From the NCBI GenBank assembly GCA_026387335.1, contig JAPLLX010000002.1, positions 77,326-141,325 on the forward strand: a DNA stretch of 64,000 nt, written 5' to 3'. This DNA comes from Candidatus Omnitrophota bacterium (GTDB lineage: Bacteria; Omnitrophota; Gorgyraeia; Gygaellales; Profunditerraquicolaceae). This document shows, one piece after another, positions 4,674 through 46,838 of the stretch. Both the position numbers and the translations under genes were made by a program. The notes beneath the pieces were generated by a model. The model had not been told where the DNA came from, searched no databases, and worked only from the letters and a program-made list of their open reading frames with translations. Every line of letters begins with the position of its first letter. The stretch's first letter is position 1.

Positions 4674-7600
4674 TGTTAAGGTATATTAAAAAATTGGCTT
4701 TAAGCAGCAAGCAGAAACAGATCAATCGCCTGGCTCCCGGAGTGAAGATATTTTTACATCCGGATATGCCGCAGCCATCAATGCATAAAATGGCCCAGAT
4801 AAGCTCTATAGTGTATGCGGTTAACGCGCTGGAAGCAAAAGTCAGCGGTTTGACCGATGAGCAGTTAAGGGCCAAGACACCGGAATTTAAGGAACATATC
4901 CAGCGGGAGGCGAAAGTCTATGAGCAGGAATTACTGGAGTTGGAAGAGGCGATGCTCTCCGTGGCTATTCCGGAAGAAAAAGAGAAATTAAAGGAAAAGC
5001 TTAAATTTACGCGCAATAATGTTTTTAAAGATATCCTCCCCGAAGCGTTCGCGATAGTCAGGGAGGCGGCCAAAAGGACAATAGGCCTGCGGCATTTTGA
5101 TTCCCAGCTCGCCGGAGGCGTAATCTTACACGAAGGCCGGATCGCGGAGATGTCTACCGGTGAAGGAAAAACTCTGGTGGCGACCCTTCCGGCGTATCTG
5201 AACGCCCTTCTGGGTAGAGGAGTGCATATAGTCACGGTAAACGATTATCTGGCCCGCCGCGACTCAGAGTGGATGGGGCCGGTCTATGAATTTTTAGGGT
5301 TAAGTGTGGGGGTCATCCAGCATGAGATGTCCGACGAGCAAAGGAAGCTGGCTTATTCCTGCGATATCACCTACGGGACAAACAATGAATTTGGCTTTGA
5401 TTACCTGCGCGACAACATGAAGTATTCACTGGAAGATCTTGTGCAGAGGCCTTTTTACTACGCCATAGTTGACGAAGTAGATTCAATATTGGTGGACGAG
5501 GCGCGCACCCCGTTGATTATCAGCGGAGCGGCTGAGGAGTCTACGGGAAAATATTTTACCGCTAAAAATATCGCCGACCAGCTAAAGGGCAGGCGGGTTA
5601 CCGAGAGGGACGAGATAGACGCTAAATACAAGGGCCTGGATTTAGGCAAGGGCTTTGATTATGTGGCGGATGAAAAAGCCCAGACCATAGCCTTGACTGA
5701 TGACGGTGAAACAAGGGCAGCCCAGCTTTGGGGGGTAGAGAGCCTGCATAATATTGAAACTATAGAATGCCGGCATCATACTATCGCCGCCCTAAGGGCC
5801 AAAGAATTTTATGAGCGCGATGTAGATTATGTAATTAAGGATGGCGAAGTCATTATTGTTGATGAATTCACCGGCCGCATGATGCCGGGGAGGCGCTGGT
5901 CAGACGGCTTACATCAGGCAGTGGAAGCCAAGGAAGGGATGAAGATAGAACGCGAGAACCAGACGTTAGCCACGGTTACCTTTCAGAATTATTTCCGGAT
6001 GTATGAAAAGCTAGCCGGAATGACCGGGACCGCTTTTACTGAAGCCAATGAGTTTAAGAATATATACCAGCTGGATGTTATAGTCATCCCGACAAATAAG
6101 CCGCTAATCCGGGCAAATTACCCTGACCGTATTTATAAAACAGAAAAAGAAAAATTTGCAGCGGTAGTTGAAGAAATCGTCGAACTTTATAATTCAGGCA
6201 GGCCGGTTTTGGTAGGCACCATCTCAATTGATAAGTCTGAGCGGCTCGCGCAGATGCTTAAACTGCGCGGGATAACCCATCAGGTGCTTAACGCCAAATA
6301 TCATGAGTTGGAAGCGCAGATTGTCGCCCAGGCCGGAAGGTTTAAGGGTGTTACTATCGCCACCAATATGGCCGGCCGGGGGACAGATATTTTATTAGGC
6401 GGTAACCCGGAATTTATGGCTAAAAATGTAGCCAAACAAAAACTTAATACTGAAGATCCTGCTTATCAGGAAGAGTATAAAAAAATATTGGATAAATATA
6501 AGCAGGAGACTGAGACTGAGCATAATAAAGTAGTGGAATTAGGCGGCCTGCATGTTTTAGGGACTGAACGGCATGAAGCGCGCAGGATTGATAATCAGTT
6601 GCGCGGCCGCTGCGGCCGTCAGGGAGACCCTGGTTCATCCAGATTTTATGTTTCTTTAGGGGATGACCTGATGCGGCTTTTTGGTTCTGACCGGCTTATC
6701 GGCATTATGGATAAGCTGGGGTTAGAAGAAGGCCAGGTCATTGAGCATCCCTGGGTCAGCCGCTCCATTGAAATTGCCCAGAGGCGGGTTGAGCAGCATA
6801 ACTTTGAAATAAGAAAGCAGCTTTTGGAATATGATAATGTAATGAATAAGCAGAGAGAGATAATTTACGGCCAGCGCCACCAGATCCTGCAGGGGATTTC
6901 TTTAAGAGAGAGAGTGTTGGAGATCGCCGAAGCCGTTGTGGATAATCTTATGAGTATCTATTTTCCGGATAATTCTTCCGGAGCTGATCCGGACTTGGAA
7001 GGTTTTGTGACCGCGCTAAATTCTAAATTCGCTTTAGTGCCCGCCGCGGAAATGCTGAATAATAATTCTAAAAACGGCCTTAGGCAAGAATTATTTAATC
7101 AGGTAATCAGCCTTTATGAAAATAAAGAAAAGGCAATCGGCTTAGATTTAATGCGGCATTTAGAGCGTATGGTATTCTTGCAGATCATTGACGCCAAATG
7201 GAAGGATCATTTATACGCTATGGATAGCCTGCGCGAAGGCATAGGGTTACGCGCTTATGGCCAACGCGATCCGTTAGTGGAGTATAAACGCGAGGCATTT
7301 GGTATGTTTAGTCAAATGGTCGCTTCCATTGAAGAGGAGTCAGTAGAGGCTATTTTCAAACTGCAACCGTCCCAGCCGCAGAGTTTTAGAGGGGCATTTA
7401 GTTCCGTGCATCAGGAGCTTTCGCATCCTGAGATTACCGGACTACAAGGCCCCCAAGAAGGAGACAGCGGCGAAGATTTTGCAGCCGCTGAAGAAGGGCC
7501 ATCCCAAAAAACAGTAAAATTATCCCACCCTAAAGTCGGACGCAATGAGCCTTGCCCTTGCGGTTCCGGCAAAAAATATAAAAAATGTTGCGGCAAATAA
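4673..7600 (+). CDS. secA: Preprotein translocase ATPase SecA
   Basis: DEAD-like motor motifs (MSTGEGKTLVATLPAYLNAL, VTVNDYLARRD) and a C-terminal zinc-binding tail (CPCGSGKKYKKCCGK). The start overlaps the prfB stop (TAATG). Confidence 0.95.
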   Translation: MLRYIKKLALSSKQKQINRLAPGVKIFLHPDMPQPSMHKMAQISSIVYAVNALEAKVSGLTDEQLRAKTPEFKEHIQREAKVYEQELLELEEAMLSVAIPEEKEKLKEKLKFTRNNVFKDILPEAFAIVREAAKRTIGLRHFDSQLAGGVILHEGRIAEMSTGEGKTLVATLPAYLNALLGRGVHIVTVNDYLARRDSEWMGPVYEFLGLSVGVIQHEMSDEQRKLAYSCDITYGTNNEFGFDYLRDNMKYSLEDLVQRPFYYAIVDEVDSILVDEARTPLIISGAAEESTGKYFTAKNIADQLKGRRVTERDEIDAKYKGLDLGKGFDYVADEKAQTIALTDDGETRAAQLWGVESLHNIETIECRHHTIAALRAKEFYERDVDYVIKDGEVIIVDEFTGRMMPGRRWSDGLHQAVEAKEGMKIERENQTLATVTFQNYFRMYEKLAGMTGTAFTEANEFKNIYQLDVIVIPTNKPLIRANYPDRIYKTEKEKFAAVVEEIVELYNSGRPVLVGTISIDKSERLAQMLKLRGITHQVLNAKYHELEAQIVAQAGRFKGVTIATNMAGRGTDILLGGNPEFMAKNVAKQKLNTEDPAYQEEYKKILDKYKQETETEHNKVVELGGLHVLGTERHEARRIDNQLRGRCGRQGDPGSSRFYVSLGDDLMRLFGSDRLIGIMDKLGLEEGQVIEHPWVSRSIEIAQRRVEQHNFEIRKQLLEYDNVMNKQREIIYGQRHQILQGISLRERVLEIAEAVVDNLMSIYFPDNSSGADPDLEGFVTALNSKFALVPAAEMLNNNSKNGLRQELFNQVISLYENKEKAIGLDLMRHLERMVFLQIIDAKWKDHLYAMDSLREGIGLRAYGQRDPLVEYKREAFGMFSQMVASIEEESVEAIFKLQPSQPQSFRGAFSSVHQELSHPEITGLQGPQEGDSGEDFAAAEEGPSQKTVKLSHPKVGRNEPCPCGSGKKYKKCCGK

Positions 7601-9561
7601 GAAAACAATTAGCAACTGAGTTAATTTTATGTTTCTCTAGCGCGCTCCTGCTTATCCTTTCCTTTTCTTCAAGTAAGTGGTGCTGGGTATTCGCCTGGGT
7701 GTCTTTTGTGCCGTTGTTTTTTGCTCTGGAGAACAAAGGGGCTAAGCGAGCGTTTGGCCTGGCTTACTTTACGGGAATATTATTCTGGTCAGGCACAATA
7801 TATTGGTTAGCTAACGTAACTATTTTCGGCCAGATCCTTTTAATCCTGTATCTTGCGCTTTATTTTGGCCTGTTTGGTTTATTAATGACCCGGCCATTTG
7901 CCAAATGCAGCCTGTTATTTATACCCGCATTATGGGTCTTCCTTGAATATGCGCGCAGCCATCTTCTAACGGGCTTTCCCTGGGCTTTGCTGGGTTACTC
8001 GCAGTACGCGAATCTGGCGATTATCCAGATTGCCGATATCGCCGGAGTCTGGCTCGTCTCTTTCCTGGTCATGTTTGTGAATGTCGCTATTAAGGAAGCA
8101 TGGTCCAGGAGGCAGCGCAGGTATCTATTTTTTGCCGGTATTTTTTTAGCCCTCAGTCTTGCTTATGGGTCTTTAAGGTTGCCTAAGATCGAGAGCCCGG
8201 AGACATTAAGAATATCTGTTGTGCAGGGGAATATCCCGCAGGAGTTAAAATGGGAAGAGAGGGCCAGAGAATTTGTAATCAACAGGTATTTTAAGTTAAC
8301 CGGTGAGGCCAAGAAAGACGCGCCGGATTTAATCATCTGGCCTGAAGCAGCCCTGCCGGTAGTCCTGGAAGAGCAACCTCTTTATTATGAAAGATTAAGC
8401 CGGTACACAAAAACAATCGGCCGGCCGTTAATTTTTGGCGCGGTCACCAGCCGTAACGACGCTTATTATAATAGCGCGCTGCTCTTATCTAAAGAAGGCA
8501 GATTATTAAGGAGTTACGATAAGTTCCACCTTGTTCCGTTCGGTGAGTTTATTCCTTTCCGAAAGGCTTTTCCGTTCCTAGAGACAATCGCTCCCATTGG
8601 CGATATTACCAGGGGCCGGGATTATACCCTGTTTAATATCCAGCATCAGGGTTTAAGGATAAGGCATCAATTCGGGGTATTGATCTGTTTTGAAGATGTT
8701 TTTCCGGAATTAGCCAGGGAATTTGTAAACAAGGGCGCGGATTTTCTGGTCAATATTACCAATGACGCCTGGTTTGGCAAGACTACCGAAGCCTACCAGC
8801 ATCTGGCCGCTTCGGTTTTTAGGGCGGTAGAGAACAGGGTTTGCCTGGTGCGCTCGGCCAATACCGGCATCTCCGGATTTATCGACCCGCAAGGAAGAGT
8901 TGTTCCTTTAGCTGACGCGCAAGGTAATTTAATTTTTACCCCGGGCTATAAAACAGAGAATATATTTTTGCCCGCGCATGCGTCATTTTACGGTTATTAC
9001 GGAGATTTTCTGATTCCTCTATGTTTATTGCTTCTTATATATATTATACTTTTTTCTTTATATAAAAAGGCGATGCGTAAGATCCTGCTGATTTCTCTGC
9101 TTATTTTGGCTATTTATTCAGCGATAAATTATTATTTCGCCGATAAATATTATTTTCTTTGCCCTATACGTTACGATACTAGTCTTATTGTCCGTAGCGA
9201 TTCCCGGGGGGATGGTTTTTTCGGCTCCAGCCGTAATGGCAATAGGATGCATCAGGGGATTGATTTGTTTGCCCAGGTCGGCACTCCGGTTTTGGCAGCT
9301 CGTTCGGGTATAGTTACGGCGGCCAAGAGCAACCGGGGTATGGGTAAGTATGTTATCATCCGCCATAGTTTTAATCTGGTCAGTATTTACGGACACCTCT
9401 CCCAGATTTTCGTTACTAAGAATCAAATCCTGCGCCAGGGACATATTATCGGCAGCGTTGGCAAGACCGGAAACGCCAGGCATCCCGGGATACAGCCGCA
9501 CTTGCATTTTGAGGTCAAGAAAAACGGCATTCCCCAGGATCCCTTGGAGTATTTAAAATAA
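7585..9561 (+). CDS. lnt: Apolipoprotein N-acyltransferase (Lnt) fused in frame to a C-terminal M23 (LytM-type) metallopeptidase domain
   Basis: Residues 1-~495 carry Lnt TM helices plus the CN-hydrolase domain (ISVVQGNIPQE..., IIWPEAALP, CFEDVFPE, NITNDAWFG). From the internal ATG at 9073 (MRKILLISLLILAIYSA...) there is an M23 domain (HQGIDLFAQVGTPV..., GHLSQIFV, HLHFEV). There is no stop between the two. Confidence 0.8.
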   Translation: MLRQIRKQLATELILCFSSALLLILSFSSSKWCWVFAWVSFVPLFFALENKGAKRAFGLAYFTGILFWSGTIYWLANVTIFGQILLILYLALYFGLFGLLMTRPFAKCSLLFIPALWVFLEYARSHLLTGFPWALLGYSQYANLAIIQIADIAGVWLVSFLVMFVNVAIKEAWSRRQRRYLFFAGIFLALSLAYGSLRLPKIESPETLRISVVQGNIPQELKWEERAREFVINRYFKLTGEAKKDAPDLIIWPEAALPVVLEEQPLYYERLSRYTKTIGRPLIFGAVTSRNDAYYNSALLLSKEGRLLRSYDKFHLVPFGEFIPFRKAFPFLETIAPIGDITRGRDYTLFNIQHQGLRIRHQFGVLICFEDVFPELAREFVNKGADFLVNITNDAWFGKTTEAYQHLAASVFRAVENRVCLVRSANTGISGFIDPQGRVVPLADAQGNLIFTPGYKTENIFLPAHASFYGYYGDFLIPLCLLLLIYIILFSLYKKAMRKILLISLLILAIYSAINYYFADKYYFLCPIRYDTSLIVRSDSRGDGFFGSSRNGNRMHQGIDLFAQVGTPVLAARSGIVTAAKSNRGMGKYVIIRHSFNLVSIYGHLSQIFVTKNQILRQGHIIGSVGKTGNARHPGIQPHLHFEVKKNGIPQDPLEYLK

Positions 9562-9563
9562 AT

Positions 9564-10709
9564 ATGTTCAATATTATTTTATTAGGCGTCACCAGTTTAT
9601 TGACGGATATCTCCAGCGAAATGGTTTATCCGATACTCCCGGTTTATCTGGTTACAAAACTTGGGGCTAGTCCGGCTATATTGGGTTTAATTGAAGGCAT
9701 TGCTGAAAGTTTAGCCAGCTTGCTTAAGGTATTCTCAGGTTATTTCTCGGATAAGATTAAACTAAGAAAACCTTTTACTATATTTGGCTACGCCGCTTCT
9801 ACCGTTGGGAAATTTCTTCTCTATATTTCTACAAGCTGGGGTTATGTTTTGGTAGCCCGGATAGTGGACCGTTTCGGAAAAGGGATGCGCACTGCTCCGC
9901 GCGACGCCTTGATTGCGGAGAGTAGTAAGGAGAGGAAAAGAGGGGCGGCTTTCGGATTACACAGGGCTTTAGATTCGCTGGGCGCTTGCCTGGGAGTTTT
10001 AGGCGCCTATTTTTTGATTACTCATTATCAGGGTGAGTTTAAGAATGTTTTTCTTCTTGCGCTTATACCGGCGATATTAGGTGTGTTATTCCTTTTTTTC
10101 GTCAGAGAGAAGAAGGCTCCCGCGCCGAAAGAAGCCGGCAATAAAATTGAATTCAGATGGCGCGCTCTGGATAAAAGACTAAAGCTCTTCCTGGTATTCA
10201 CATTTGTATTTACTCTTGGTAATTCGTCTAATCAATTCCTGCTCTTACGCGCGCAAAATCTGGGTAATCCCCTCCCCATAGTTATACTATTGTACCTTTT
10301 TTATAATATAAGTTACGCTATTGTTTCGTATCCAGCTGCGCGCCTTTCGGATAAAATAGGCAGAAAGAAACTGCTTGTCGCAGGTTACCTATTTTACGCC
10401 CTGGTTTATTTAGGGTTTGCCTTAAACAAATCGCCGCATAATTTCTGGTTTTTATTCGGCGTCTATGGATTATATATAGGATTTACCGAAGGTGTAGAAA
10501 AAGCGCTGGTAGCGGATATCGCACCGAGCGAACTTCGCGCTACAGCCATAGGTTTACACGCCACGCTTGTGGGTATAGGTTTATTGCCGGCGTCAATATT
10601 TGCCGGATTACTTTGGAAATCTATCGGTCCGCAAGCCGCGTTTTATTTCGGCAGCTTTATGGGGCTAATCTCAAGTATAGGATTTTATTGGGTTTTAAAG
10701 GGGATATAA
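9564..10709 (+). CDS. MFS transporter
   Basis: Twelve predicted TM helices, MFS loop motif (GKGMRTAPRDA). Confidence 0.75.
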   Translation: MFNIILLGVTSLLTDISSEMVYPILPVYLVTKLGASPAILGLIEGIAESLASLLKVFSGYFSDKIKLRKPFTIFGYAASTVGKFLLYISTSWGYVLVARIVDRFGKGMRTAPRDALIAESSKERKRGAAFGLHRALDSLGACLGVLGAYFLITHYQGEFKNVFLLALIPAILGVLFLFFVREKKAPAPKEAGNKIEFRWRALDKRLKLFLVFTFVFTLGNSSNQFLLLRAQNLGNPLPIVILLYLFYNISYAIVSYPAARLSDKIGRKKLLVAGYLFYALVYLGFALNKSPHNFWFLFGVYGLYIGFTEGVEKALVADIAPSELRATAIGLHATLVGIGLLPASIFAGLLWKSIGPQAAFYFGSFMGLISSIGFYWVLKGI

Positions 10710-31753: not shown

Positions 31754-32671
31754 ATGAAAATAGCCAAAGATATTACAGAATTAATCGGCAATACCCCTTT
31801 GGTTAAACTTAACCGTTTAACCAAAGATTCCCTGGCCAACGTTGTGGCCAAGCTAGAAGCATTTAACCCCTGTTCTTCAATAAAGGATAGGATAGGCTTG
31901 AATATGATTGAACAGGCGGAAAAAGACGGCAAGATTAAAAAAGACACCATTATTGTTGAGCCGACTTCCGGGAATACGGGGATCGCTTTAGCTTTTGTCT
32001 CGGCGGTAAAGGGCTATAAATTGATTTTAACTATGCCCGAGACGATGAGCCTTGAGCGCCGCCAGCTTTTGTCAGCTTTTGGAGCTGAAATCATCCTTAC
32101 TCCCGGAGCTGAAGGGATGTCTGGCGCAGTAAAGAGGGCCGAGGAGTTAGCTAAGAGCGATAAGCGTTATTTTATTCTGCAGCAGTTTGAGAATCCAGCG
32201 AATCCGGATATCCACCGGCGCGTGACTGCGCAGGAAATTTGGCGCGATACAGACGGAAAGATTGATATTTTAGTTGCGGGCGTGGGTACAGGTGGTACAA
32301 TCACAGGTATAGCCGAAGCGCTGAAAAAGAAGAAAGCTGCGTTTAAAGCAGTTGCTGTTGAGCCGGAAGATTCGGCGGTTTTATCCGGTGATAAACCCGG
32401 GCCGCATAAGATCCAGGGGATTGGCGCGGGTTTTATCCCGCAAGTATTGAATACGAAGATCATTGATGAGGTGATCCGGGTTTCCAATGATGATGCCCTG
32501 GAAACTTCCCGTAGGCTAGCTAAAGAAGAAGGTATCTTAGCGGGGATATCCAGCGGCGCGGCTACTTTCGCGGCGATAGAAATTGCCAAGAGAAAAGAGA
32601 ATAAAGGAAAATTAATCGTGGTAATCTTGCCGGATACAGGCGAACGGTATCTGAGCACAGGATTATTTTAA
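31754..32671 (+). CDS. cysK: Cysteine synthase A (O-acetylserine sulfhydrylase)
   Basis: SSIKDR PLP-lysine motif and the GNTG loop. Confidence 0.9.
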
Positions 32672-39865: not shown

Positions 39866-42800
39866 ATGAAAGTCAAATTAAGAAAAATCCTATCTTTAGC
39901 TTTAACCATTAGTTTACTTTTTCAGCAAATAGGTTTTGCCCAGATAGCTACCGAACTTAACCTGGTCAATCACTTCGCCAGGATGGCTAGCAGTCTCACA
40001 GTAGAGAAATTTCGGCCCCTGCACCTGCGTTATTTCTCTTACGACAACTTAAATGACAATTTCAAGGTATTGGTGGATAAAGGTGACTTCGAGAAGGGAC
40101 TGTCCCCGAAGGGGGCTGTCCCTGAAGAGAAACTTAAAGAAGAAACCAAAACCCTCCTTAGCTACTTCCTTGTAGGAGTTACTCTTCCAGATAGTATGTT
40201 CTGGGTTAACCTGCGCCCTGATTCCGAAGACCAGATAATAGACCAGTATCTGGAGAAGACAGATATAGGTAAGATAATGCTGGAAGCAGATCTCCAGCTA
40301 AAGAAAGACACCGCGCTAATGACTTCTCCGGCTACCCCTGAAGGTAGGGAATACTGGGATAGGCTCTATAAGAAGGCAGCCGAGCTTTATGGCTATGATA
40401 ATGTTAGCATACCTACCTTAACCCGGCCCTGGATAGTCCCCGGAGAAATAATTGTCCGGGAATCTCAAGACTCAGCCTATGTTTATAAAGCTAATCTTAA
40501 GGTAATGCTGGAGCAGGATTACTTAAAAGATTCTAGTAACTATAACTTTAAAGACAGCCGCTCCAAAGCCCTGAATGAATACTCATCCGAACTAATAAGG
40601 GAATTAATTATCCCTAAGCTCACTAAAGAAGTAAACTCCAGCAAAAGATACGCTCCTTTACGCCAGGTATATTACTCTTTAATCCTGGCCCGCTGGTTTA
40701 AACTGCGCTTTAGCGGCAAAACCGGCACCTATGCTTCGCTCATTAACACTAGGAATTTAACTAACTTAATATCTAAAGACTCCTGGTCCAAGACCGATTA
40801 TTTTAAACAATACCAAAAATCCTTCTCTGAAGGCGAATACAATATCCAAGAACCAGTGCGTACCCCTACAGGCCAGGTAATCAGGAGTTACTTTAGCGGC
40901 GGGATAGATGTAGCTAGTAGCGCTATTAATACTCAGAATGGCGTTAGTAATCTTAAAGCGGCGTTGCCCCTTTCTTTGTTTTCTCGAACCGGAGTCATAA
41001 TAGGAGGAAATGCCGCAAGGCCTTTTAGCGTAAATCTGCAGCCCGTTGTTGCCGCTTCAGTCGGCGCCGCCTCGCCGGTTAAAACCTCTAGCCCGATATT
41101 TACTCTTGATGATAGAAATGGGGTAGTCTTTTCTGTTTATCCCAGAACAGAAATAAGAGAGGATCAACTAAGAGAGGCGGCGGAGGTTTTGAAAAACCGG
41201 ATTTTTAACTATCCAAAAAATGGCAAGATTATTGATATTCAGCTAGTCCCTGGCTCTAAGCGGCAGATAGCTTATCCTACGCGCTGGAAAATAGTTATAG
41301 AGCATAAGCCTGATTTAGAAGAAACTCTGGTTACATTAGTAAATGATCAGGGCAAAGTTATTATTAATATAGGCTATTCTATCGATAGTAAAGCGCTCGA
41401 TTTACCAGAAAAACTTCTTAACGAACACCTGCAGATGGCATTGATTAGCGCCGCATCCAGAATAAGGTTTAATTCACTGGCCGCCGCCTCGCCGGTTAGT
41501 TCATTAGAAAATCAAGCATATCTTCTTGCTTTAACCTTGGGCATAAAAGATTCAGAAAGGAAGTATGTCGCGGTGGTATTTATGATGCCTTTGATAAAAG
41601 CCTTTATGGATAATAGTAATCCTCCTCCGACTTCAAGCCAGGCCAAAGAATTCTATCAGAGAATAATAAATAATACAGACAAGACAGTTTCAGTTGAAGT
41701 TTTAGCCCGGTCGTTTGCTTTCCTTTCAAATCCGAACGCTAGCTTGTCGGAAAAAGAAAAATTCAACAGCTCGCCGGTGACTTCAAATTTAGCTAAGGCA
41801 GTTGAGGAAGCGCAAAGCCAGTTGCCGGCAGATGTAAATGAACAGATTTTAAAGTTTATTGTTACCGGCGATGAAAATGGAAGAATACTTTATCCTATTT
41901 GGCCGCAAGATTCTGTTATGGTCGGACATGTCAGAGATGACCGGGCTGGATATTTTGCCAGAGGCCTGCAGAATAGAGGCTTTAAAAATTTATTAGGATA
42001 TATTAAATTTACCAATGATTTCCAAGGTAAAGCTGTTTTGTCCGAAGAAACTATCGCTAGTGTTCCAAATACTTTTTTTGAGAGAATATCCAACAAGGGG
42101 TATCAAGTGTTGGTGATTTCTGAAGATGAGAAGAAAAGCCATACGGGTAAAAACGCTGCCGGTAGGAAAAAGGACGGGCTTTTCCCCGGGCAAAAACAGA
42201 TTGTAATACCTATGCAGAAATCTGAAATGGCCTATGTAGATACTCCCCAGATGAAAATGAAAGAATGCGCTGACGAGGTATTAAATGGACTGGATGACGA
42301 TGCTACAGATTTTATTTTAGTTAATCTGCTAAGTTCAGATATGATGAAACACACCGGTAACTTCCAAGCGGCAAAAAAAAGTAATGAAATAACCGACCAG
42401 CAGATCGGAAGAATAAAAGAAAAGGTTGATAGAATAAAAAGCCATATTCTGGGTGATATGATGAAAGAAGTCAATAAATACTTATCTAGAGAAGAGGCCA
42501 GTCAGCTTTATGTTTTACTATTGAATAATTATGCTGAATTTTTAGCAAGGCTGAAGAATAAAAACCAGGAGCTCTATAAACGGATAAAAGATTTAGAAGC
42601 CAAAATTCCCATCTTTGTTATTACTGCTGACCATGGCGCTTCTGAGGCAGGTCTCACTGATAATCCGAAGGAATCCGACACTTTCCATACAGCCAATCCA
42701 GTGCCGTATATTATTTATGATCCCCTAAGAACTCAAAAATTAGCTTTAAAGTCCGGACAGACCATCAGGAATAACGGGGCTACATTATTACACCTATTAG

Positions 42801-45800
42801 GCGAAGAGATCCCCCAAGGGTCTGATCCCAGCTTGCTGCCTGATGATTATCAAGGAAGTAAGCGTAGGATCACGATGGCTGTTTTGGATGGCTGGGGTAT
42901 AAACCCTGATCAGAATTATCCCTGGGATGCTATCCGGCTGGCCAATACACCTAATTATGACTGGATGGTTGAGAATGCGTCTTTCACTCAGGTCCAAGCG
43001 CACGGTGAAGTGATCGGATTAAGAGGCCCATTATCTTTGGAAGAAGGTAGACACCATTTAAGAGGCCTGCAAGCAGGCCAGACTGACGTTGGCCACCTGC
43101 ATTTGTTCTCACTGAGAGAGATTAAACAACCTTTATGGTATGTAGACAGGCTTATCAAAGGCAGTATACGCGATGGCGTTTTTGATGAAAGCAAACCCGA
43201 AGTCCAGGTATTGGTAAAAGAATTACAAAGGGTTAAGGATAATAATTTGAGATTTCATTATATAACCATCGCTTCTGAGGGTGGAGTGCATTCTTCGCTC
43301 TATCATATGTATGCCTTGATGAGATTAGCTAAGAAAATCGGCTTAAGGCAGGATCAATTTATTATCCATTTTGCCGCTGACGGTAGGGATGTGCCTACGC
43401 GCACCGCGCATCTATACATTCAGGATGTTGAAAAACGCATTGAAGAAATTGGAATAGGCGTAATTGCAACGGTATTTGGCAGGGATATGTTCGTACGTAA
43501 GGATGGCGCAGAAAATATCACTAATCGCATCATTGATGTAATGGAGGGTATTAATCTGGATGCGCAGGATGTCACGCAGGTAAAATCTGTCGCCAGCTCG
43601 GCGGTCACAGCAGTAGAATCTTTGAGAAATGATATTCTAACTAGGCTAAAAGAACGGATAAAAGATGATTCTGTTGTTAACCTGGTAAGGTCAAACTACT
43701 TATTTTATACGGCGAATACTCCTTCTAAATTAGCAAAGGCACTTGTTCAGATAGAAGAGAATCTGGATGGATTGATTATGTCTGCCACCGAAGAAAGATC
43801 GAGAGACCTGCAGACGCTCCAAGAATCAATAGAATCAGAACTGGCTAAACTTGTCTCCGTCGACTTGCCGGTGGAGACTATCAGTGAATTTGCAAAGATA
43901 GTTGAAAAACTGGCTGGTTATGGAGATGTAAGTTTTGATATATCGGGAACGGGAACTTTGAGAATACGCTATGCTGGTAATTTGTCTATGGTAGATAAGG
44001 TAGAAGCCGACAAGCTTCTGGTTAAGGCTAGAAAATTAATAGTAGAAGTTTCTTCTATAATAGGAAAAAAGATAAGCCAGTCATATGTGATGAAATTCCC
44101 GCAGGGGACTTTAGCTGCTAAGATAAGGGAAGATTTACTGCTTGAAAAAGCAAGGATATCAGAAAGTTTCGCCAGCTCGGAGGTTACTTATATAGACATA
44201 AATGAAGTAAGGCCGCCGGATAAGAGTTTTACTTTTCAACCCACAAATGGAGTGAGAATTTTTATTAATAATCGTGTCAATTGGTATACTCTGCAATTGG
44301 CTAGGTATGAGCCGGGAAAGAAGAATTATTTGATATTTAAGATTGGCAATCAACCTGTTCATTACGCTTACCTGAGCAGTAATCTTACAATTGGCCAACA
44401 GGATGTTGTTAGGACTATAATGAGAAAAATAGAGAATGGAACTCAGCTGTGGACAGAAATAGACTTAATCCAAGCGTTGGAAAAAGCATTATCTATGTCA
44501 CAATATAAGCCTAAAACTCAAGAATTACCGTCACCAATTATAATAGAACCTATTGTAGATAATAAAATTAAAGTGGAGTCGGGTGATTCAGAGCGCGCCA
44601 GCTCGCCGGTGCAGAAGGAAGAAAGATCGAACTATCTATTCTCTGGGTTACAGGAGGCAACCTTAGATGCAATTGGGGATATCCAGGGATTGGCAAGTTG
44701 GGCGCCTTTAATAGAAGAAGGCCCCAGCGGCGTAGAGCTAGGTATGGATATTATAATGAAGGAATACGGTTTAGATTCAGATAAGCCTATTCTTACGCAA
44801 CGATTAGCCGAACCAGGTAATTTTAAAGAGCTTTTGGAAAAAATCGATAAATTATATGAGTTTTTGGAAAAAAAATTAGAGAGCTTTTCTAAATTACTCG
44901 CTGATGTTAAAGAACAACAAAAGAAAATAATGACCCAGCATATAAGTAGTGTTAGCGACCAGGGTAAGGGTATAGAAAAAAGTTCCGTTTATTGGGGGAG
45001 TGAGTTTGTTTTAGAAGTTGCAATTAATAACATTGAAATAGCAATGCTTAAGTTAAGGCAAGCTGTTGAGAAAGTCAAAGGAGATATAGCTATTGTACCC
45101 AACTCATATATCGGGACTAAATTAAAGGAAGGCGCCAGCTCGGCGGTAACCAGAGAGAAAAAAGAGTCAGTTAACCTTTTAGGCGGAAGCACGCAAAAAA
45201 GAGTGCTTAGGGTTTATGAAGAGAAGGGCAGAGATTTAATAGCTACAGCCCTAGCTACAGGCCTTACTTTGGATATTGTATCTGAGTATGTTAAGGACGC
45301 CAAGCGTAATCCGGCCAGCTCGGCGGTGACGGAAAAAATTAAGGAAACGTTTCGCCAAGGAGGACTTTCCTTGAGTGAGTATACTATGGATTATATCGCG
45401 AAAAGGTTAAGCTCCATATTAAAGGATGGCGATGATATTGATAGAGATACTGCTGCTAAAATATTAATTAGCGTATATGATAATAATAAGCTTGCGGGTG
45501 GAACTCGAGCCCTCGGTCAAGTGTTTGCAACGCTTAATGATGCCAGGGAATTGCGGGAAATGGTAAAATACATCCGCGATCAGAAGGATAAATCTGTTGC
45601 CAGCTCGGCGGTGCATCATAAAATAATCAACCTCTACGATTTTGATTCTATCAAGGCGAAGAAAATAGATCCAAGTATTTTAAAAAATAGATTCATAGAG
45701 AAAATAGAAGAATTAATAGCAGATGTAAGGGAAGGTAAGAGAAGAGAATTTGCCGGTGAGTTGATACGATTAGCGAAAGCTGATGAGAACCTTTATACGA

Positions 45801-46357
45801 TTTGGTTTACCGATACAACATGGGTAGATATTAGACCTCAAGGGACAGAGATAGATATTAATTTTAGGTGTCGAGCTGGAATAGAGCAAAGCGTTGTGTG
45901 GGATGTTAGGCGTTTGATTAAGCTTTCCCAGTCAGAATTGTTAGTAGGAACCGTCGGCTCGGCGGTGCAGACTCCTGAGGAGACCGCAAGTTCAGCGTTG
46001 ACTCCCGGCGGTATTGATTTCCGCGCTCTACCGATGAGCATCCAGCCGATGGGAAGTTTTGCGGGCCTGAATTTTAAGCTGCCGCAGTTGACTCAAGCGC
46101 AGCTTAAGCAAATCAATATTGAATCAGAGATGCAACAGGTTAAGAATCTGGTAGAATCAGGGATTGTTCCTTCCGGAGACAGGATTAAAGAGCTTATCGC
46201 CGCTTGCAGCCAGAAGGGGAAGATTAGTTATTATGTAGATAATCTATTACTCTGCCTGGTAGATATATGTAAACTTGAAGAGCAGAATGCCTTTGAAACT
46301 TCCCCGGAGCTAAGAGAGGCGCTGGCGATTGTTGATTCGCTTGGCGGGCAGGTATAA
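39866..46357 (+). CDS. Giant secreted modular protein (2163 aa) with embedded iPGM-like metalloenzyme segments and at least 10 recurring A-S-S-A-V motifs; function unknown
   Basis: RBS AAAAGGAG; signal peptide MKVKLRKILSLALTISLLFQQIGFAQ. Hallmark iPGM motifs are internal: ITADHGASE ... HTANPVP (aa ~918-940), MAVLDGWG (aa ~1004), AGQTDVGH, SEGGVHSS (aa ~1135), DGRDV, IATVFGR. See findings. Confidence 0.85.
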   Translation: MKVKLRKILSLALTISLLFQQIGFAQIATELNLVNHFARMASSLTVEKFRPLHLRYFSYDNLNDNFKVLVDKGDFEKGLSPKGAVPEEKLKEETKTLLSYFLVGVTLPDSMFWVNLRPDSEDQIIDQYLEKTDIGKIMLEADLQLKKDTALMTSPATPEGREYWDRLYKKAAELYGYDNVSIPTLTRPWIVPGEIIVRESQDSAYVYKANLKVMLEQDYLKDSSNYNFKDSRSKALNEYSSELIRELIIPKLTKEVNSSKRYAPLRQVYYSLILARWFKLRFSGKTGTYASLINTRNLTNLISKDSWSKTDYFKQYQKSFSEGEYNIQEPVRTPTGQVIRSYFSGGIDVASSAINTQNGVSNLKAALPLSLFSRTGVIIGGNAARPFSVNLQPVVAASVGAASPVKTSSPIFTLDDRNGVVFSVYPRTEIREDQLREAAEVLKNRIFNYPKNGKIIDIQLVPGSKRQIAYPTRWKIVIEHKPDLEETLVTLVNDQGKVIINIGYSIDSKALDLPEKLLNEHLQMALISAASRIRFNSLAAASPVSSLENQAYLLALTLGIKDSERKYVAVVFMMPLIKAFMDNSNPPPTSSQAKEFYQRIINNTDKTVSVEVLARSFAFLSNPNASLSEKEKFNSSPVTSNLAKAVEEAQSQLPADVNEQILKFIVTGDENGRILYPIWPQDSVMVGHVRDDRAGYFARGLQNRGFKNLLGYIKFTNDFQGKAVLSEETIASVPNTFFERISNKGYQVLVISEDEKKSHTGKNAAGRKKDGLFPGQKQIVIPMQKSEMAYVDTPQMKMKECADEVLNGLDDDATDFILVNLLSSDMMKHTGNFQAAKKSNEITDQQIGRIKEKVDRIKSHILGDMMKEVNKYLSREEASQLYVLLLNNYAEFLARLKNKNQELYKRIKDLEAKIPIFVITADHGASEAGLTDNPKESDTFHTANPVPYIIYDPLRTQKLALKSGQTIRNNGATLLHLLGEEIPQGSDPSLLPDDYQGSKRRITMAVLDGWGINPDQNYPWDAIRLANTPNYDWMVENASFTQVQAHGEVIGLRGPLSLEEGRHHLRGLQAGQTDVGHLHLFSLREIKQPLWYVDRLIKGSIRDGVFDESKPEVQVLVKELQRVKDNNLRFHYITIASEGGVHSSLYHMYALMRLAKKIGLRQDQFIIHFAADGRDVPTRTAHLYIQDVEKRIEEIGIGVIATVFGRDMFVRKDGAENITNRIIDVMEGINLDAQDVTQVKSVASSAVTAVESLRNDILTRLKERIKDDSVVNLVRSNYLFYTANTPSKLAKALVQIEENLDGLIMSATEERSRDLQTLQESIESELAKLVSVDLPVETISEFAKIVEKLAGYGDVSFDISGTGTLRIRYAGNLSMVDKVEADKLLVKARKLIVEVSSIIGKKISQSYVMKFPQGTLAAKIREDLLLEKARISESFASSEVTYIDINEVRPPDKSFTFQPTNGVRIFINNRVNWYTLQLARYEPGKKNYLIFKIGNQPVHYAYLSSNLTIGQQDVVRTIMRKIENGTQLWTEIDLIQALEKALSMSQYKPKTQELPSPIIIEPIVDNKIKVESGDSERASSPVQKEERSNYLFSGLQEATLDAIGDIQGLASWAPLIEEGPSGVELGMDIIMKEYGLDSDKPILTQRLAEPGNFKELLEKIDKLYEFLEKKLESFSKLLADVKEQQKKIMTQHISSVSDQGKGIEKSSVYWGSEFVLEVAINNIEIAMLKLRQAVEKVKGDIAIVPNSYIGTKLKEGASSAVTREKKESVNLLGGSTQKRVLRVYEEKGRDLIATALATGLTLDIVSEYVKDAKRNPASSAVTEKIKETFRQGGLSLSEYTMDYIAKRLSSILKDGDDIDRDTAAKILISVYDNNKLAGGTRALGQVFATLNDARELREMVKYIRDQKDKSVASSAVHHKIINLYDFDSIKAKKIDPSILKNRFIEKIEELIADVREGKRREFAGELIRLAKADENLYTIWFTDTTWVDIRPQGTEIDINFRCRAGIEQSVVWDVRRLIKLSQSELLVGTVGSAVQTPEETASSALTPGGIDFRALPMSIQPMGSFAGLNFKLPQLTQAQLKQINIESEMQQVKNLVESGIVPSGDRIKELIAACSQKGKISYYVDNLLLCLVDICKLEEQNAFETSPELREALAIVDSLGGQV
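41066..45967 (+). repeat. Dispersed direct repeats of a GC-rich 12-15-nt element inside the giant ORF
   Basis: GCCGCCTCGCCGGTT at 41066-41080 and 41483-41497. AGCTCGCCGGTG at 41769-41780. GCCAGCTCGG(C/A)GGT at 43592-43605, 44171-44184, 45134-45147, 45314-45328 and 45599-45613. GCCAGCTCGCCGGTG at 44597-44611. GGCTCGGCGGTG at 45956-45967. All are in the same frame and encode A(A/S)S(A/P/E)V. Confidence 0.8.
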
Positions 46358-46532: not shown

Positions 46533-46733
46533 ATGGCAAAAGGTAAAGTAAAGTGGTTTTCCAACCAAAAAGGTTATGGGTTTATTACTCCTGAGAATGG
46601 TAATGATGTCTTCGTGCATCATACAGCTATACAGGGTGATGGCTATAAGACTTTAGAAGAGGGCCAGGAAGTGGAGTTTGAGATTGAAAAAGGTCCGAAG
46701 GGCGAGCAAGCTACAAAAGTAACCAAGTTATAA
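46533..46733 (+). CDS. cspA: Cold-shock protein CspA family
   Basis: [16 protein letters not shown] and VFVHH RNP motifs. Confidence 0.9.
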
Positions 46734-46756: not shown

Positions 46757-46819
46757 AATAAAGGGGACGGTTCTATTTTTTCAGGTTTAAGATTAAAAAA
46801 TAGAACCGTCCCCTTTATT
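46757..46819. terminator. Long perfect-stem intrinsic terminator (potentially bidirectional)
   Basis: AATAAAGGGGACGGTTCTATTTTTT ... AAAAAATAGAACCGTCCCCTTTATT, a perfect inverted repeat of about 22 bp flanked by A/T runs. Confidence 0.75.
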
Positions 46820-46838
46820 CGTATGCTATAATTACCGT

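Follow-up and report, generated by a model that had tools for sequence, protein, structure and literature searches.

The stretch of DNA analyzed here (the window; 64,000 nucleotides [nt], positions 77,326 to 141,325 of contig JAPLLX010000002.1 in assembly GCA_026387335.1) comes from a Candidatus Omnitrophota bacterium and carries a gene for a modular protein of 2,163 amino acids (aa) at 39866-46357 on the plus strand. This gene contains ten in-phase direct copies of a GC-rich motif, GCC-AGC-TCG-[G/C]CG-GTn, in a single reading frame, and is the only motif-bearing gene of the window. Its product is identical to NTW18_02340, a protein of a metagenome-assembled genome (MAG) at NCBI (Candidatus Omnitrophica bacterium) that is annotated as hypothetical. 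Beyond what an initial annotation of this DNA had noticed, the motif is not peculiar to the window gene, and every copy marks a boundary between protein modules across an Omnitrophota protein family. All sequences compared come from MAGs.

The protein opens with a signal-peptide-like N-terminus (39866-39943, MKVKLRKILSLALTISLLFQQIGFAQ), followed by a conserved family N-domain of ~350 aa (39944-41065; 55 to 92% identity among relatives), and it closes with a likewise conserved C-domain of ~125 aa (45968-46354) that starts around GGIDFRxLP..QPMGSF. The ten junction copies divide what lies between. Copies 1 and 2 (41066-41080 and 41483-41497) both read GCCGCCTCGCCGGTT (AASPV), and at copy 1 homology to the N-domain ends and cargo module 1 starts. 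Copy 3 (AACAGCTCGCCGGTG, NSSPV, 41765-41779) stands at the start of a module related to cofactor-independent phosphoglycerate mutase (iPGM), and copy 4 is at 43592-43606 (GCCAGCTCGGCGGTC, ASSAV). Copies 5 (GCCAGCTCGGAGGTT, ASSEV, 44171-44185) and 6 (GCCAGCTCGCCGGTG, ASSPV, 44597-44611) form the left and right ends of a cassette shared with one relative (L013). The module behind copy 7 (GCCAGCTCGGCGGTA, ASSAV, 45134-45148) is homologous to the first cargo module of two others (P0005 and P0031). Copies 8 and 9 (45314-45328 and 45599-45613) are both GCCAGCTCGGCGGTG (ASSAV), and at copy 10 (GTCGGCTCGGCGGTG, VGSAV, 45953-45967) the C-domain homology to relatives begins (aa 2028-2045).

The copies are nearly identical as DNA and not only as peptide, as the initial annotation had proposed, and codon bias does not account for it. 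The invariant serine is TCG in 9 of 9 A/N-S-S-x-V copies, a codon that supplies 9% of serines in the other 46 open reading frames (ORFs) of the window (P of ~5e-10). The first alanine is GCC in 8 of 8 copies and the second-position serine AGC in 7 of 7, bearing out the AGC-then-TCG order noted at the outset; position 4 is GCG, CCG or GAG. The wobble base of the valine codon is the sole freely varying one (T, T, G, C, T, G, A, G and G across nine copies). The motif is ~75% GC, as had been estimated, compared with 41% for the gene and 43% for the window. The initial count of five for the 14-mer GCCAGCTCGGCGGT needs one correction: four copies are exact, and the fifth, at 44171, is GCCAGCTCGGAGGT, with one mismatch (ASSEV). 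The variants GCCAGCTCGCCGGTG (44597), AACAGCTCGCCGGTG (41765) and GTCGGCTCGGCGGTG (45953) occur where they had been placed, as does the second subtype GCCGCCTCGCCGGTT, twice and identically (41066 and 41483). The ASSAV version, GCCAGCTCGGCGGTn, accounts for four copies (43592, 45134, 45314 and 45599).

The repeat is also confined to this gene and sharply bounded within it. When up to two mismatches to GCCAGCTCGGCGGT are allowed, the 64-kb window holds nine matches, seven of them in the gene and all of those on the plus strand; dinucleotide-preserving shuffles predict 0.31, and none of 100 shuffles reached nine. No reverse-complement copy of the motif strings is present in the window; the copies are, as had been stated, all direct repeats on one strand and in one frame. 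The peptide SS[APE]V is found in none of the 46 other window ORFs of at least 150 aa. Outside the modular gene, the 9-mer core CTCGGCGGT occurs in the window only once, at 31999, which is consistent with chance. The 30-nt flanks on either side of the copies share 28 to 32% identity with one another, the random level, compared with 86% for the motif, and the segments between copies have no mutual similarity. A genome-wide k-mer explained by codon bias and flanks as conserved as the repeat were the two outcomes named in advance as contradicting the idea of a distinct DNA element; both were looked at, and neither was found.

The window protein belongs to a family whose members share three parts only, the signal-peptide-like start, the N-domain and the C-domain. 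Among the candidates scored, ~956 are homologues of the window protein, essentially all labelled Omnitrophota. A profile of the N-domain, searched against 1.84 billion representatives, matches at least 7,459 clusters at 50% identity, always at the N terminus, in proteins of up to 7,391 aa. Across GTDB species genomes, 415 loci match the family, with several paralogues per genome. As defined by sequence comparison, this is a large undescribed Omnitrophota family with fixed N- and C-domains around variable cargo. According to Pfam, that cargo includes, among glycolytic and other enzymes, phosphoglycerate kinase, enolase, triose-phosphate isomerase (TIM), glyceraldehyde-3-phosphate dehydrogenase (GAPDH), glucose-6-phosphate isomerase, phosphomannomutase, transaldolase, transketolase, pyruvate phosphate dikinase and guanylate and adenylate kinases, as well as HEAT and TPR repeats and further modules. 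We found no paper on the family, on the motif or junction peptide, on its DNA conservation or on domain shuffling in Omnitrophota.

Both fixed domains are recognizable in the window protein by their signatures. The N-domain signature, WVNLRPD ... EADLQLKKD ... TRPWIVP ... SYFSGG, follows directly behind the leader, and the domain has no Pfam or NCBIfam model and no fold match in the PDB. The C-domain signature, GGIDFRxLP..QPMGSF..GLNF..PSGERIKEL.., is likewise present, in a domain that again has no Pfam or NCBIfam model; aa 2030-2163 align to more than 100 relatives at 30 to 77% identity, and the C-domain is found in 110 of the 120 top hits. In a structure model, the C-domain is predicted to start as an unstructured stretch with ASSAL, GGIDF and QPMGSF and to continue as a confident bundle of four to five helices, for which fold matches are only to generic or designed proteins and suggest no function. 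The end of the N-domain (...SYFSGGID-VASSAI) and the start of the C-domain (ASSAL-TPGGIDF) carry GGID and ASSA[IL] in mirrored order and in ordinary codons, and this arrangement at the inner edges of the two domains may reflect a pairing or docking role or a common origin.

Export or anchoring of the protein would be expected from its leader. The leader sequence, LFQQxGFAQ[IV]A, is unusually well kept across the family. Sec signal peptides are not typically so constant, which points to a dedicated sorting signal.

Several observations concern the family as a whole. Its genes are sometimes in tandem: at one locus (L080, 1-977), the sequence coding for a 3,248-aa protein with domains of fructose-bisphosphate (FBP) aldolase, GAPDH and TIM stops 24 bp short of the P0058 gene, and a 1,634-aa paralogue with a divergent N-domain precedes the family gene at another locus (L020, 3988-8889). 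Several loci with the family (L006, L019, L025, L046, L048, L067, L068, L072 and L074) were deposited as MAGs of an "uncultured Planctomycetales bacterium" or a "Deltaproteobacteria bacterium"; either these labels are loose or the contigs mis-binned, or the family reaches beyond Omnitrophota. Some family genes (L067, with parts at 6255-7124 and 7128-9653, L035 and L040) appear interrupted: a stop codon comes soon behind the N-domain, and a long ORF then runs on in the same orientation. Pseudogenes, errors in sequencing and genuinely split genes could each account for this pattern.

Comparison within the family establishes each motif copy as a boundary between protein modules. Among tetrapeptides in the cargo of 120 homologues, ASSA, SSPV, AGSP, SSAV, SSPI and AASP are the most frequent. 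In the cargo parts of 220 family proteins, the peptide x-[SGA]-S-[AP]-[VILM] occurs 2.46 times per 1,000 aa, compared with 0.13 in shuffled sequences, a 19-fold enrichment, and 182 of the 220 proteins contain it. Segments aligned by BLAST between family members most often start at motif position 0 and end at position +4, ~6-fold over random. Modules of the window protein recur in other genes in different order: aa 398-555 lie midway along P0006, aa 1757-1827 form the opening cargo module of P0005 and P0031, and aa 1436-1586 are found in P0007/L013.

To place the nucleotide-level conservation in a wider frame, we used a gene set of the 80 best loci (79 relatives with their flanks), within which taxonomic breadth was sampled. 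The canonical DNA form is present in 31 of the 80 genes, in many assemblies and at many sites, and the window gene is the richest, with nine copies. At 266 motif instances in the 79 relatives, compared with the remainder of those genes, the codons GCC (62% at the motif against 25% in the background), TCC (41% against 17%), ACC (61% against 31%), TCG (44% against 9%), CCG (55% against 28%) and GCG (62% against 21%) are all preferred, and the last wobble position of the motif is free. Codon bias as the source of the DNA identity is ruled out by these codon tables of the window and 79 relatives. The preferred nucleotides outlast amino acid replacements, with GCC, TCC or ACC at position 1, AGC, GGC or GCC at position 2, and GCG or CCG at position 4. 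Because they persist in this way, ASSAV, AGSPV, AASPV, SSSPV and TSSPV are single-base neighbors of one sequence, GCC-RGY-TCG-SCG-GTN. Its information content is limited to ~14 nt, with no dyad symmetry and no accessory arms, and no conservation extends past the 15-mer.

Two classes of motif can be distinguished. Of 258 instances of the same peptide, 78 lie within two mismatches of the consensus 14-mer, where background codons predict 5, and the distribution of distances is bimodal, with a near-consensus class and a class that cannot be told apart from random codon choice. In-frame hits to a degenerate 14-mer number 67 across 364 kb of family genes, compared with 5 in 878 kb of flanks on both strands, and non-family ORFs that encode the same peptide choose TCG in only 20% of cases. 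This canonical form of the DNA is thus specific to the family and recurrent across species. Copies within a gene share synonymous codons more often (0.449) than copies in different genes (0.347), a difference reached in none of 300 permutations, and some genes have favorite versions, such as GCCGGCTCGCCGGTG in L012 (six copies) and GCCAGTTCGGCGGTG in L070 (five copies). Other genes (L074 and L061) keep the peptide with other codons. Motif-like peptides buried in the two fixed domains, which do not serve as joints for shuffling, have ordinary codons. In the window gene these are VASSAI inside the end of the N-domain (40913-40927; GCT AGT AGC GCT ATT) and ASSAL in the C-domain (45986-46000; GCA AGT TCA GCG TTG).

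Rearrangements of module content have their breakpoints in the motif. The initial annotation had reasoned that recombination between the copies would give in-frame deletions or variation in module number, and such events, together with exchanges, are indeed found with breakpoints inside the repeat. All were observed in relatives and none in the window genome's own population; a metagenome scan with aa 1243-1916 returned no close relative of the window gene. The window gene itself shares with L013 the cassette at 44186-44596 (aa 1441-1577), whose neighboring modules are unrelated in the two genes. Between window aa 1436-1577 and L013 aa 1081-1222, nucleotide identity is 81.6%; homology starts at the first base of the left motif (GCCAGCTCG) and stops after GCCAGCTCGCC of the right motif, with random identity outside.

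Gains or losses of single modules separate pairs of orthologues among the relatives. L022 and L039 are 94% identical up to a motif, at which point L022 has an extra module of ~209 aa before the alignment resumes; two motif copies flank the extra module, and the corresponding joint in L039 has one. L028 and L029 likewise differ by one module, which is flanked by two motif copies in the longer gene, where the shorter one has a single copy. L080 (P0058) holds two copies of a 282-bp module, 100% identical in nucleotides, in the order GCCGCTTCGCCGGTG, unit, the same motif, unit, the same motif, bounded to left and right by unique sequence. Unequal exchange or slippage between two motif copies would be expected to give such a product. 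Although whole-protein self-comparison by BLAST returned no internal duplications, splitting the proteins at the motif and comparing the modules revealed further internal module paralogues, with similarity that starts at residue 1 or 2 of the modules.

Larger blocks have been replaced as well. P0070 and P0073 share 92.5% identity in the N-domain and 97.6% in the final 971 aa, and their central blocks of ~2,300 aa are unrelated. The left break lies right behind MSSPV and the right break at ASSAAV, encoded in P0070 by ATGAGCTCGCCGGTT and GCCAGCTCGGCGGCGGTT, respectively. The latter, at codons 2691-2696 of L081 (P0070), is a canonical motif with a duplicated GCG triplet, a small slippage inside the repeat. 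Module insertions and deletions, a perfect tandem duplication and block replacements therefore all have breakpoints inside the motif.

A likely, though by no means certain, explanation is that the repeat joins cassettes in frame and that its identity at the DNA level provides the microhomology through which modules are deleted, duplicated and exchanged. Each copy would encode a linker, A-[S/G/A]-S-[A/P]-V, that separates two modules. Whenever two copies, be they in a single gene or in paralogues, underwent a crossover, strand slippage or template switching, whole modules would then be removed, duplicated or exchanged; because the copies are direct and in codon phase, the frame would be kept and modules would move entire. 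Canonical junctions (GCC-RGY-TCG-SCG-GTN) would give the microhomology for new joints, each event would propagate canonical copies, and junctions not used would drift to ordinary codon usage. DNA identity would in this way be both cause and consequence of shuffling. We infer that the motif DNA is itself a substrate of recombination rather than a mere marker of viable joints, and that the process is one of microhomology or slippage rather than enzyme directed. The junction peptide may serve either as a flexible linker or as a site of proteolytic processing.

We had also entertained, as the leading explanation, that each copy is individually constrained, and dropped it when codon identity at orthologous motif sites proved not to exceed background. 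Turnover is preferred over purifying selection on each copy because the distances to consensus are bimodal, copies within a gene are homogeneous, motif-like peptides that do not serve as joints for shuffling have ordinary codons, and orthologous sites are not additionally conserved.

A number of points weigh against a cassette junction driven by microhomology. No canonical copy is present in 49 of the 80 genes. When homologous motif sites are aligned between genes, their codons agree no more often than background, which gives no direct sign of purifying selection, although this result fits turnover too. Efficient RecA-dependent recombination usually needs more homology than 14 to 15 nt; the events would have to be mediated by slippage or microhomology or be assisted by an enzyme. 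Survivorship could bias the breakpoints of viable insertions and deletions to linkers under any mechanism, and it is not obvious that turnover driven by the copies alone would keep the canonical nucleotides in many species. The perfect L080 duplication was taken from a MAG built on short reads and might be an artifact of assembly.

An alternative that we regard as unlikely is that the motif acts in the mRNA, as a ribosome pause at domain boundaries brought about by two successive NCG codons or a Shine-Dalgarno-like stretch, as a small hairpin or as a site for an RNase or an RNA-binding protein, and so aids cotranslational folding, targeting or processing of a polyprotein. TCG, the rarest serine codon (9%), is used at every copy, and the copies stand at domain boundaries, where a pause may be of use. 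The GGCGGTG ending of the alanine version, and GGAGGT in one copy, resemble Shine-Dalgarno sequences, which would count for this view. However, alanine, serine and proline are, in this genome, most often encoded by GCC, AGC and CCG, respectively, so that there is no rare-codon cluster, and the commoner proline version, TCGCCGGT, is not Shine-Dalgarno-like. The preference tracks nucleotides across GCC, TCC and ACC, which an effect of codon or tRNA would not predict, and it is missing from the peptides within the N- and C-domains; orthologous sites show no added synonymous conservation. The structural RNA signal suggested by the initial annotation did not materialize: fold z-scores around nine copies range from -1.6 to +1.65, with no shared structure and no Rfam match. 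No tRNA gene, which might have borne on a pause, was found in the window. Two further proposals of that annotation, a recoding signal and a protein-binding site, are conceivable but found no positive support.

It is similarly improbable that a dedicated, sequence-specific recombinase or template-switching enzyme, encoded elsewhere in the genome, uses the 14-mer as its core site to insert, excise and exchange cassettes in frame. Such a system would accommodate the recurrence of a core, TCG-SCG-GT behind NCC-RGY, in many species and at every resolved breakpoint, the confinement of information to ~14 nt, as in a recognition site, and the architecture of alternating repeats and cassettes. Yet no conserved neighbor, recombinase or protease genes included, lies within 6 kb of the 79 family loci, the flanks hold no free or promoterless cassette arrays, and the motif has neither dyad symmetry nor accessory arms. 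Many family members are also without canonical copies, and slippage or unequal crossing over ordinarily yields events of the types seen, tandem duplication and deletion between direct repeats. We give still a little less credence to a combination in which the 14-mer is the recognition core of an in-frame cassette-exchange system and the peptide is at the same time the cleavage site of an exported polyprotein. Were both true, Omnitrophota would actively reshuffle multi-enzyme polyproteins from a pool of modules, in an "integron for protein domains."

The peptide alone might matter, as a flexible linker, glycosylation site or protease site, with the DNA identity a by-product of bias, codon-pair context or chance; we consider this very unlikely. 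The peptide is 19-fold enriched in cargo, and since some lineages (L074 and L061) keep it with other codons, the peptide itself must be under selection. The C-domain model places a motif-like stretch in a segment predicted to be unstructured, and cleavage of giant Omnitrophota proteins has been proposed (West-Roberts et al. 2023, 10.1101/2023.11.21.568195). Against this, the codon statistics exclude bias or chance as the origin of the DNA identity, no protease domain is recognizable in the window protein, and the fixed synonymous sites are left unexplained. As an account of what the linker does, a role for the peptide is compatible with the cassette junction. Finally, a simple recent tandem or segmental duplication, which the initial annotation had listed, or a genome-wide oligomer, such as an uptake sequence, a Chi-like site or a repetitive extragenic palindrome (REP), has practically no chance of being correct: copies are direct and several are identical, but both readings are refuted by random identity of the flanks and unrelated modules, by the lack of any copy elsewhere in the 64 kb on either strand and by the excess of hits in family genes over flanks in relatives.

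Several known systems bear comparison with the cassette junction proposed here, and those closest in mechanism are integron and shufflon cassettes, the junctions of polymorphic toxins and the vls repeats of Borrelia. Integrons (attC/attI) and the R64 shufflon (sfx, Rci) also have cassettes bounded by repeats, and the shufflon rearranges in frame inside a coding region. Both depend on a dedicated recombinase that acts at longer, structured sites, with inverted repeats in the shufflon, whereas the repeats here are direct, 14 to 15 nt long, without symmetry and without a linked recombinase. In polymorphic toxins, junction motifs such as VENN (CdiA) and PxxxxDPxGL (Rhs) accompany recombination with orphan C-terminal modules. 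The likeness is a short motif between a conserved N-terminal part and variable modules, with a sharp break in homology. Those proteins have a single junction, a toxin as cargo and a downstream immunity gene, in contrast to the many junctions, housekeeping-type enzymes and conserved C-domain found here, with no immunity-like or otherwise conserved downstream neighbor. Viral and other polyproteins have a short consensus cleavage peptide at each module boundary and resemble this family in repeating one short peptide along a long translation product; here, no protease domain is recognized, and cleavage is known only as a possibility. Viral cleavage sites are not known to be conserved at synonymous positions.

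In vlsE of Borrelia, 17-bp direct repeats flank the variable cassette region (PMC9159922). There as here, short in-frame direct repeats conserved as DNA delimit exchangeable cassettes and mark segment replacement. The vls system has an adjacent array of silent cassettes and uses unidirectional gene conversion for antigenic variation of one lipoprotein. In this family, by contrast, unrelated enzyme and scaffold modules are all expressed in one ORF with up to ten repeats per gene, no silent array was found in 878 kb of flanking DNA, and the events observed, namely deletion, duplication and exchange of blocks, belong to an evolutionary time scale. The cassettes here are of the repeat-bounded kind, in frame and many per gene, and they join unrelated enzyme modules.

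Also comparable are the very long proteins of Omnitrophota described as multi-enzyme metabolic clusters and Archaeovorins (10.64898/2026.06.07.730766; 10.1101/2023.11.21.568195). They come from the same phylum, bear signal peptides and are tiled with sugar-metabolism and kinase domains, and their cleavage is an open question. Those papers treat proteins of at least 10,000 aa, compared with 2,163 aa for the window protein, and describe no family defined by the N- and C-domains, no A-S-S-[A/P]-V junction and no DNA-level conservation of it. As West-Roberts et al. (10.1101/2023.11.21.568195) describe the cleavage points of giant Omnitrophota proteins as unknown, the junction motif is a candidate for them. 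More practically, a boundary defined by sequence shows where very long Omnitrophota proteins may be divided when their structures are to be predicted.

That an unannotated family puts enzymes of glycolysis, the pentose-phosphate pathway and nucleotide kinases behind a signal-peptide-like leader bears on how central metabolism is organized in these ultra-small, possibly host-dependent bacteria. The family also illustrates, in a natural setting, how domains can be shuffled at a short DNA repeat without loss of frame. The intermediates are visible, namely an insertion or deletion, a perfect duplication and a block swap, and the case is relevant to the evolution of multidomain proteins and to the design of recombination-ready linkers.

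The iPGM cargo of the window protein (41780-43591) is unusual in being circularly permuted. Residues 31-345 of the module align to iPGM residues 240-500 and residues 360-575 to iPGM residues 2-192, so that the two halves are swapped. The Pfam domains PF06415 and PF01676 each score above their own cutoff, and the full-length collinear model TIGR01307 gives 209 bits, below its cutoff of 330.65. At the catalytic phosphoserine motif, GNSEVGH aligns to GQTDVGH, with Thr in place of Ser. The same permuted module is found in P0002, P0003, P0004 and L017, with 63 to 74% amino acid identity, and because the arrangement is kept in these relatives, the module is probably functional. Searches of the single window-gene modules against PADLOC, Pfam and NCBIfam returned nothing except iPGM.

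Directly downstream of the modular gene lies a small ORF resembling cold-shock proteins (46533-46733). It is followed by a long perfect hairpin, AAAGGGGACGGTTCTATTTTTT...AAAAAATAGAACCGTCCCCTTT (46757-46821), which gives spurious Rfam microRNA matches and is most likely an ordinary intrinsic terminator.

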